Positions 30,955 through 31,014 of a DNA stretch of 64,000 nucleotides are shown piece by piece. The notes below the pieces were generated by a model. It searched no databases. It was not told the DNA's origin and saw nothing but the letters and a program-made list of their open reading frames with translations. The DNA lies in sequence record OR532814.1, one strand, 5' to 3'. This DNA comes from Klebsiella phage RCIP0020. The position numbers and the translations under genes were made by a program. Within the stretch, counting starts at the first letter, position 1. Each line of letters opens with the position of its first letter.

Positions 30955-30988
30955 GCCCTTGACTTCGGTTGAGGGCTTTTGTTATATT
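30955..30988 (+). promoter_or_regulatory. Terminator/early-promoter cassette: hairpin GCCCTTGAC ttcg GTTGAGGGC + TTTTG + TATATT (-35 TTGACT inside stem, 18-nt spacer)
   Basis: Near-identical element recurs on the minus strand at 61244-61277; variants at 48258-48291, 54122-54156 and 60493-60527. Confidence 0.6.
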
Positions 30989-31014
30989 GGGCCTATCGAA
31001 AAAGGAGACATATT

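Follow-up and report, generated by a model that had tools for sequence, protein, structure and literature searches.

Intergenic cassettes in which a promoter is combined with a stem-loop have been described in phages RB49 and phi1 under the name of PeSLs (promoter-early stem-loops). According to those parts of the paper by Arbiol et al. (2010, PMC2839356) on which we draw, a PeSL is a repeated cassette that comprises an AT-rich stretch, a sigma-70 consensus promoter, a G/C-rich stem-loop and a Shine-Dalgarno (SD) sequence with an ATG, and five subclasses are distinguished by the position of the stem, one of them with the stem overlapping the −35 hexamer. With lacZ reporters, strong terminator activity was found for one stem-loop and strong promoter activity for the cassettes. 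The same parts of the paper place PeSLs next to nrdD and to genes of unknown function, mention PeSL-like sequences near gene 43 of RB43, and propose that recombination between cassettes shuffles genes and yields mini-circles. The class was subsequently extended to the pairs T4/PST and KVP40/nt-1, as stated in the portion of Comeau et al. (2014, PMC4122927) used here.

Promoter-coupled terminators have also been described in Acinetobacter and other bacteria (Fletcher, Forrest, ... Grainger, bioRxiv 10.64898/2026.08.19.745784). In that study, mutations prove the dual use of the stem-loop DNA and of the T-tract, and the coupled promoter raises the termination efficiency, the strengthening being expected to arise via polymerase interference. 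With regard to the morons of lambdoid phages, it is noted that the novel genes of T4-like phages have been argued not to be moron-like (Nolan et al. 2006).

For Slopekvirus, our literature search found no paper describing PeSLs, and the paper on phages KP15 and KP27 gives no more than the numbers of promoters and terminators predicted there. In the RefSeq record of KP15, a motif labelled 'putative middle promoter' overlaps ARNold terminators at the four loci examined, and in the KP27 record a promoter overlaps a terminator at the nrdD-proximal site; both records annotate a promoter as well as a terminator at the ortholog of the first cassette discussed below.

Here we describe a family of such cassettes in a Slopekvirus genome, with their anatomy, copy number, strand asymmetry, compensatory stem changes and fixed promoter spacing, and with a natural deletion and a natural replacement at one of them. 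Judged from the sequence, the cassettes are probably (with a probability of about 0.8) PeSL-type intergenic modules of about 70 nt, in which an intrinsic terminator and a promoter for the host sigma-70 share the same DNA.

Five cassettes in the window and their relatives

The window, i.e. the whole stretch of DNA analysed here, has a length of 64,000 nucleotides and comes from Klebsiella phage RCIP0020 (OR532814.1). It belongs to a T4-like Klebsiella myovirus of the genus Slopekvirus (KP15/KP27/PMBT1 group), with bases 29000-33000 having 100% identity to the Klebsiella phages RCIP0002, RCIP0006 and phi1_146007 and 99.8% identity to PMBT1. On the + strand lie nrdD and a number of small genes that lead up to those for the long tail fibre, and the − strand from about 46.9 kb carries early-type genes, namely rIIA/rIIB, topoisomerase, dexA, dda and many small genes.

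Five composite elements are present, at 30955-30990 (+) and, all on the − strand, at 61244-61277, 48258-48291, 54122-54156 and 60493-60527, just where the original prediction had placed them. As it had further claimed, each of the five copies has a GC-rich hairpin with TTGACT or TTGCA(A/T) in the 5' arm, followed by a T-tract and then by TATATT or TATCTT 17-18 nt after the −35 hexamer. Two of the distances have to be corrected. The ATG, which had been put 25-35 nt downstream, is actually located 23-39 nt after the −10 hexamer, and the run shared by the copies at 30955 (+) and 61244 (−) is indeed identical but extends over 40 nt (30952-30991 being the reverse complement of 61241-61280) rather than 36 nt.

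Cassette 1 (30950-31017, +) lies between nrdD, with its stop codon at 30945-30947, and a gene for an 80-aa protein of unknown function (phrog_12911). An A-tract (30950-30954) is followed by the 5' arm (30955-30963), the loop (30964-30967), the 3' arm (30968-30976) and the T-tract (30977-30980), the stem being formed by GCCCTTGAC and GTTGAGGGC around a TTCG loop, after which come TTTT, G, T and TATATT. Over the same nucleotides lie the −35 hexamer TTGACT (30959-30964), a spacer of 18 nt, the TG of an extended −10 (30980-30981) and the −10 hexamer TATATT (30983-30988), and then follow a GGG discriminator (30989-30991), the predicted start A (30995), the SD GGAG (31004-31007) and the ATG (31015). 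The hairpin has a calculated dG of −18.3 kcal/mol (z −5.7).

The other four cassettes are on the − strand. Cassette 2 (61218-61282) is situated between a LysM-domain gene (61284-61565) and a 49-aa gene (61071-61220), with the −35 hexamer TTGACT at 61273-61268, a spacer of 18 nt, the −10 hexamer TATATT at 61249-61244, the ATG at 61220 and a hairpin dG of −16.9 kcal/mol. Cassette 3 (48216-48296), between a 75-aa gene (48299-48526) and a 265-aa gene (47421-48218), has TTGACT at 48287-48282 and, after 18 nt, TATATT at 48263-48258, followed by the leader ATCGAAAC at 48251-48244 and the ATG at 48218 (dG −21.1 kcal/mol, z −5.9). In cassette 4 (54089-54160), which separates the topoisomerase medium subunit gene (54163-55449) from an SprT-like gene (53537-54091), the hexamers are TTGCAA (54150-54145) and TATATT (54127-54122) with a 17-nt spacer, the ATG is at 54091 and dG is −17.1 kcal/mol. 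Finally, cassette 5 (60453-60531), between a 100-aa gene (60544-60846) and an 87-aa gene (60192-60455), has TTGCAT at 60521-60516, a 17-nt spacer, TATCTT at 60498-60493, the leader ATCGAAAC at 60486-60479 and the ATG at 60455 (dG −19.2 kcal/mol). All five copies are thus intergenic, beginning 7-40 nt after a stop codon, having A-tracts directly 5' of their stems, and leading to the SD and ATG of small genes. Most of these genes have no known function (four of five), the remaining one being SprT-like.

The five sense-strand RNA folds have free energies of −16.9 to −21.1 kcal/mol, corresponding to z values of −3.9 to −5.9 relative to dinucleotide shuffles. When a composite site is defined as TTGNNN-N16-18-TANNNT together with a hairpin of dG ≤ −16, the window contains 5 such sites, which are exactly the five copies, compared with 0.08 ± 0.28 in 60 dinucleotide shuffles; the next best real composite site reaches −14.5 and lies outside the cassette family. 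By contrast, simple sigma-70 consensus matches in the window are not enriched (42 versus 44.7 ± 8.5 expected), and since these matches alone are at the chance level the significance rests in the combination of promoter and hairpin. An Rfam scan of the whole window gave no family at threshold.

The family had been taken to consist of five copies. Five is the correct number of full copies in the window, but the family as a whole is larger. A profile built from the cassette copies returned from the window the five full copies and two partial relatives, and in the near-identical genome of RCIP0002 about 14 full copies are found. BLAST with a 74-nt cassette gave 1076 places in 180 phage records, with 7-9 copies per record in Slopekvirus and 2-7 in RB43/RB16, Lw1, Miller, Cronobacter and Enterobacter phages. 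For the comparison across lineages a set of 34 distinct copies from several phage lineages was used; because a covariance-model alignment mixes sense and antisense matches, pair counts were taken by script on filtered sense copies.

Both partial relatives are degenerate and lie on the − strand. In the first (60120-60174; profile match E 1e-4), a hairpin formed by GGGGTAGC and GTTACCCC encloses the −10 element TGgTATAGT (hexamer 60154-60149), the leader ATCGAAAC is at 60142-60135, and there is no good −35. The hairpin-less one (59845-59890; E 2e-4) reads AAAAAAGCC-TTGCAT-N17-TGaTATAGT and then the ATCGAAAC leader, having retained the 5' arm sequence with the 3' arm absent.

A probable terminator and promoter in the same DNA

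The first proposed role of the hairpin and U-tract, as a terminator, is supported by several predicted features. The stems consist of 9-10 G/C-rich pairs plus A·U extensions and are followed by 6-7 U in 9 nt, the preceding stop codon is close by, a terminator scan of the window flags 60531-60501, 61280-61253 and 54154-54137, and ARNold terminators are annotated at the orthologous sites in the KP15 and KP27 GenBank records. Moreover, the structure depends on the strand, which also speaks for a terminator: in the four copies folded on both strands the sense hairpin is more stable than the antisense one by 3-8 kcal/mol. This arises from systematic G·U pairs in the stems, by which the antisense RNA folds more weakly. 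The first T of the TTG is paired with G in 11 of the 14 RCIP0002-genome copies, so that the antisense strand mostly reads CCTG and not TTG, and in four of the five window copies the TTG is specific to the sense strand. Such an asymmetry would be expected if selection acted on the RNA, in a single orientation, and if only one of the strands bore a −35. It is noted that the T-tract is short (3-5 T) and interrupted by G, so that termination may be partial (attenuation).

The same asymmetry bears on another explanation, in which the cassettes are primarily elements at the DNA level, such as recombination- or packaging-related sites or operators, and their likeness to transcription signals is secondary. 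Near-identical copies that are repeated, including the pair with 40-nt identity, would be in line with that explanation. However, the G·U wobbles give a strand-specific structure, which fits RNA and not a duplex palindrome or cruciform, and the cassettes have a single orientation relative to the genes, after a stop codon and before an SD and ATG. We return to this explanation with the data on gene exchange.

For the sigma70 −35/−10 pair, which had been proposed to lie within the same DNA, the support comes likewise from sequence features, namely the invariant spacing of the TTG, the TGn, the contrast in TTG with other terminators and the hairpin-less relative, which retains its TTGCAT. In all 14 genome copies and in all 34 distinct copies the TTG is present 17-18 nt upstream of TAT(A/C)TT, the spacer of the distinct copies being 17 nt in 23 and 18 nt in 11. 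The two parts of the spacer vary in length, the remainder of the hairpin from 10 to 12 nt and the part with the T-tract from 5 to 7 nt, compensating each other to a sum of 17-18. The stem takes in the first 4-5 bases of the −35 hexamer. Among the 34 distinct copies, hexamer positions 4-5 vary with compensating changes in the 3' arm (one pair being C·G in 22, A·T in 9 and G·C in 2 copies and the other A·T in 11, C·G in 12 and G·C in 2), and the TTG stays constant. In the RCIP0002 genome, a TTG in the 5' arm is found in 13/13 promoter-fused hairpins and in 3/28 other terminator hairpins, with a Fisher p of 3e-8 that is overstated, because the cassette copies are paralogues and counts such as 13/13 are not independent events.

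Downstream, the G that is conserved behind the T-tract belongs to a TGn extended −10, which is present in all five window copies, in 12 of the 14 genome copies and in 26 of the 34 distinct copies, and several copies have GGG directly after the −10. The predicted transcription start coincides with the first base of a conserved leader, ATCGAAAC(G/A)AAAC, at a distance of exactly 6 nt from the −10, and this leader also follows the cassette in RB16/RB43-type contigs. When anchored to the −10, the leader pattern is matched exactly at four places of the window, each of them a promoter of the cassette family; the leader motif alone (CATCGAAAC, 1 mismatch) is not enriched, with 26 matches versus 20.7 expected. 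Two further leader candidates, at 24536 and 59182, were rejected as promoters, being intragenic.

The extended −10 raises the question of whether the TTG of the stem is needed at all. Promoters with an extended −10 can function without a −35, and with the TGn present the −35 may contribute little. One may thus suppose that a terminator merely abuts an extended −10 promoter, with TGnTATATT alone initiating and the TTG being incidental to a widespread GCCCTTG...GGGC terminator stem rather than a functional −35. The frequency of the TGn (five of five copies in the window, 26/34 overall) is as expected in that case, and the degenerate relative at 60120-60174 has TGgTATAGT with no good −35. In addition, a scan of IMG/VR with AGCCCTTG-N9-RRGGGCTTT, a pattern that is too generic and was of use only for control purposes and for finding further composite copies, gave 120 loci, most of which are plain terminators of unrelated viruses; as the stem AGCCCTTG...GGGCTTT is thus common in viral terminators, many of them lacking any −10, a TTG in the stem is not diagnostic alone. 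An incidental TTG, however, would not be expected to stay at 17-18 nt despite the changes in the lengths of stem, loop and T-tract, nor to be rare (3/28) in the other terminators of the same genome. Furthermore, the hairpin-less relative (59884-59845) retains TTGCAT-N17-TATAGT, with the TTGCAT at 17 nt, the 8/34 copies without the TG still have the TTG, and in bacteria mutation of the stem-loop DNA reduced the activity of the coupled promoter (10.64898/2026.08.19.745784). We therefore regard the incidental TTG as improbable and keep to the shared terminator and promoter.

It remains to consider which polymerase the promoters serve. The KP15 RefSeq record labels the motif family 'putative middle promoter; discovered using MEME', implying MotA-type middle promoters that are activated by phage factors rather than used by the unmodified host polymerase. 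Such promoters have a MotA box centred at −30, 11-13 nt before the −10, and depend on phage-encoded MotA and AsiA. At −30, the sequence of this box, (a/t)(a/t)(a/t)TGCTT(t/c)A, is absent from every copy. A tblastn search with T4 MotA and AsiA gave no match in the RCIP0002 genome or in the window (best E 2), and the genes at the syntenic position by the holin gene t match only PHROGs of unknown function. The related phage RB43 has neither a motA gene nor a middle-promoter consensus, and in the KP27 record the same site, close to nrdD, is annotated as 'similar to consensus promoter TTGACA(N15-18)TATAAT'. On the grounds of the missing box, the missing MotA/AsiA match and the precedent of RB43 the label is rejected, and middle promoters are, of all the alternatives considered, the one to which we give hardly any credence. 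The sigma-70 promoter, by implication early, is the better reading.

Signs of gene exchange at the cassettes

The identity between copies had been taken as a sign of homogenisation or of recent spread of a mobile regulatory module. The mobile module, which the PeSL papers propose as well, gains some support from a natural deletion and a natural replacement that are bounded by cassette flanks; 'recent' does not stand, because the genus as a whole has the 40 identical nucleotides in copies 1 and 2, as seen in KP15 and in an uncultivated relative.

The deletion is found in phage vB_CRKPVQ_22, which is without 355 nt of the window, exactly cassette 5 and its 87-aa gene. Its junction is inside a 19-nt direct repeat, AATAGCATTTTTTGTTAAA, which precedes both cassette 5 and the next promoter. 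On the − strand, the first copy (60548-60530) overlaps the stop codon just upstream of cassette 5 and the second copy (60193-60175) lies just upstream of the next promoter region, the two being 355 nt apart, so that the repeat distance is the deleted unit. In the same slot Citrobacter phage IME-CF2 has an unrelated gene between equivalent repeats, TAGCACTTTTTG(T/C)TAAAG; compared with the window, the cassettes themselves are conserved, with the genes between cassettes 2 and 5 only distantly similar.

Between genera, the homology breaks at four of the five cassettes (30955, 61244, 60493 and 48258). The homology to Enterobacter phages ends at 30989, at the end of the −10 of cassette 1, the homology to RB43 begins at 48296, at the start of cassette 3, and the match to Cronobacter phage leE is limited to 43 nt of cassette 2. 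Nor do the cassette types follow orthology: at the ortholog of 61244, where the window has TTGACT, IME-CF2 carries the TTGCAT type, and RB16-type contigs have a GTTGAGGGC arm at the ortholog of 48258. For the indels 31960-32472 and 32973-33517 and the insertion 48964-49008 among close relatives, no flanking cassettes were found, two of the three being homing-endonuclease-type or precise gene indels, so that the link of the cassettes with genome plasticity is only partial.

Boundaries of indels and replacements at cassette flanks, together with cassette types that differ between orthologous loci of different genera, would also be expected of elements that act primarily at the DNA level, and in the parts of PMC2839356 on which we draw the authors of the PeSL work proposed homologous or site-specific recombination and mini-circles. 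The junction of the deletion, however, is in an AT-rich repeat upstream of the hairpin, which fits ordinary homologous exchange. Taken with the strand-specific structure and the single orientation described above, this makes a primarily DNA-level element very unlikely.

A further proposal accepts the exchange and gives it a larger part. The cassettes would be an exchanging regulatory module that is kept by gene conversion within and between genera, with the leader AUCGAAAC(G/A)AAAC, counted from the predicted +1, as a distinct functional element; the leader would, for example, be recognised by a factor of the phage or of the host through which the stability or the translation of early mRNA is controlled. 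The cassette types that do not follow orthology and the fixed 6-nt distance of the leader from the −10 across Slopekvirus and RB16/RB43-type phages are in line with this proposal, which we put forward tentatively, as a possibility that is unlikely but less so than the other alternatives.

Proposed course of events and relation to known systems

Returning to the terminator and promoter that share the same DNA, we infer the following for termination, initiation and their early timing. The polymerase coming from the upstream early gene would transcribe A5-GCCCTTGAC-loop-GTYRRGGGC-U4, whereupon the G+C-rich hairpin and the U-rich tail (UUUUGYUAUAUU) would free the RNA some 13-18 nt upstream of the following start site. 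In the double-stranded DNA, the −35 would be provided by the TTG in the 5' arm, the T-tract and the following G would give the spacer and the TG of the extended −10, TATATT would be the −10, and GGG would make a favourable discriminator. Transcription would start at the A of the conserved ATCGAAAC leader, about 20-30 nt before the SD of the next gene, and the A-tract upstream may in addition work like an UP element. Small early genes, singly or in groups, would thus be insulated units, each with its own start and stop. As to recombination, we propose that the cassettes and their flanks, being repeated, provide homologous exchange sites that delete, insert or swap the intervening genes.

The interpretation as terminator and promoter in the original prediction is thus supported as the best one, but it is not new. 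The discovery is a modest one, since papers of 2010 and 2014 had already presented this kind of element with its function and a proposed role in evolution. New here are the extended −10, the G·U strand asymmetry, the conserved leader, and the census over the genome and across genera, together with the rejection of the 'middle promoter' label and the clean natural deletion and replacement at one cassette. The cassettes offer a compact rule for the boundaries of early transcription units in phages of Slopekvirus and of the RB43 type, among which are many candidates for phage therapy of Klebsiella and Enterobacter, and this rule sets right the 'middle promoter' label that the KP15 reference record gives. 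They would also mark sites at which accessory genes are swapped, which would aid in predicting or engineering gene content. As natural and sequence-diverse dual-use DNA, they could moreover serve, through their compensatory variation, as a test set for promoter-terminator coupling, which is currently under study in bacteria.

By their predicted architecture, the cassettes are the Slopekvirus member of the published PeSL class and of the general promoter-coupled terminator design. In common with the PeSLs, so far as these are covered by the parts of PMC2839356 and PMC4122927 cited here, they have a sigma-70-like −35/−10 pair with a spacing of about 17 nt, a stable stem-loop (over the −35, as in one PeSL subclass), an AT-rich upstream stretch and an SD with a start codon; they likewise precede small genes without known function and occur next to nrdD. 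Of the association of PeSLs with insertions, deletions and gene replacements between close relatives there is one clean case here, at cassette 5, and three other indels in the window lie away from cassettes. The differences, within the same parts of these papers, are as follows. The lineage is that of Slopekvirus and the RB43/RB16 group, unlike that of RB49/phi1, T4/PST or KVP40/nt-1. In Slopekvirus one architecture dominates, with the stem over the −35, a T-tract spacer and TGn, whereas in phi1 the stem most often lies over the −10 or between the two boxes. Those descriptions of PeSLs mention neither the ATCGAAAC leader nor a systematic G·U asymmetry. The copy number is about 14 in RCIP0002, compared with roughly 50 per phi1 or RB49 genome, the count in RCIP0002 being lower because only one architecture was counted.

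With the bacterial promoter-coupled terminators, the cassettes share the overlap of the stem-loop DNA with the −35, the A-tract upstream, the position between tandem genes and the dual use of sequence. The bacterial elements, however, are chromosomal and non-repeated, with phages unmentioned, whereas the phage cassettes form a multi-copy, near-identical family with signs of exchange. The commonest distance from termination to start is about 10 bp in the bacterial elements, compared with 13-18 nt as we infer it here, the TGn adding about 3 nt. Finally, a small accessory gene that is an autonomous transcription unit and that is gained or lost recalls the lambdoid morons. Yet in morons the promoter and the terminator are separate and at opposite ends of the gene, and the G+C content is atypical, whereas here one fused intergenic element is common to the two neighbouring genes.

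The leader at the predicted start site and the promoter label

A conserved leader, ATCGAAAC, follows the cassettes (fused terminator and early-promoter elements), with its first base at the predicted +1, exactly 6 nt past the -10 hexamer, and it is often extended by (G/A)AAAC. In the window the leader is present on the minus strand at 48251-48244, 60486-60479, 60142-60135 and 59866-59859, while the variant ATCGAAAA is present at 30995-31002 (+). In RB16/RB43-type contigs the leader is likewise found after cassettes. It is noted that the cassette motif is labelled 'middle promoter' in the KP15 reference record, despite the fact that no homologue of T4 AsiA or MotA is detectable in the whole genome of the near-identical phage RCIP0002 (L001-L004) or in the window (tblastn, best E = 2).

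Hairpins abutting late promoters

The T4-type late promoter motif TATAAATA is located directly 3' of terminator hairpins at 36289-36318 (+) and 9751-9786 (+); one of these cases, GGCCTTCGGGCC-T6-G-TATATAAATA, precedes the gp34 tail fibre gene. Late promoters do not require a -35 element. The direct abutting of hairpin and late motif in the sequence indicates that the fused terminator-promoter layout extends to late promoters.

A free-standing homing endonuclease gene of 212 aa (9811-10449, +; phrog_314) has a hairpin of its own (GGGAACCTTCGGGTTCCC followed by T5) upstream, together with the late-promoter motif TATAAATA, in the region from 9751 (+). The gene is flanked by those for the major capsid (8151-9719) and vertex (10482-11771) proteins and is absent from RCIP0002, a genome otherwise near-identical to the window.

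Gene-sized differences and other hairpins

The 170-aa gene at 31954-32466 (+) is missing from two close relatives, P-KP2 and KP27, the difference spanning 31960-32472, and in KP27 a MobC-like homing endonuclease replaces the 175-aa gene at 32979-33506 (+), the difference spanning 32973-33517; no cassette is present at the borders of either difference. In K41P2 an additional 76-aa gene is inserted in the intergenic region 48943-49008 (-), which has the hairpin GGGGCGAAAGCCCC and a second, longer hairpin covering the next gene's Shine-Dalgarno sequence.

Near uvsW, GCCCCTTCCTTTCGGTTGGGGC forms a bidirectional terminator between convergently oriented genes (13085-13111, both strands), and the same 22-mer occurs 3 times in the RCIP0002 genome. 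Upstream of dam, inside the open reading frame 26879-27181, a strong hairpin, GCCCCTTGTAGCTCGCAAGGGGC, is followed by T5 and TGcTAAAAT (26938-26975, +). This element looks similar to the cassettes, but differs from them in its 19-nt spacer and its location in coding sequence.
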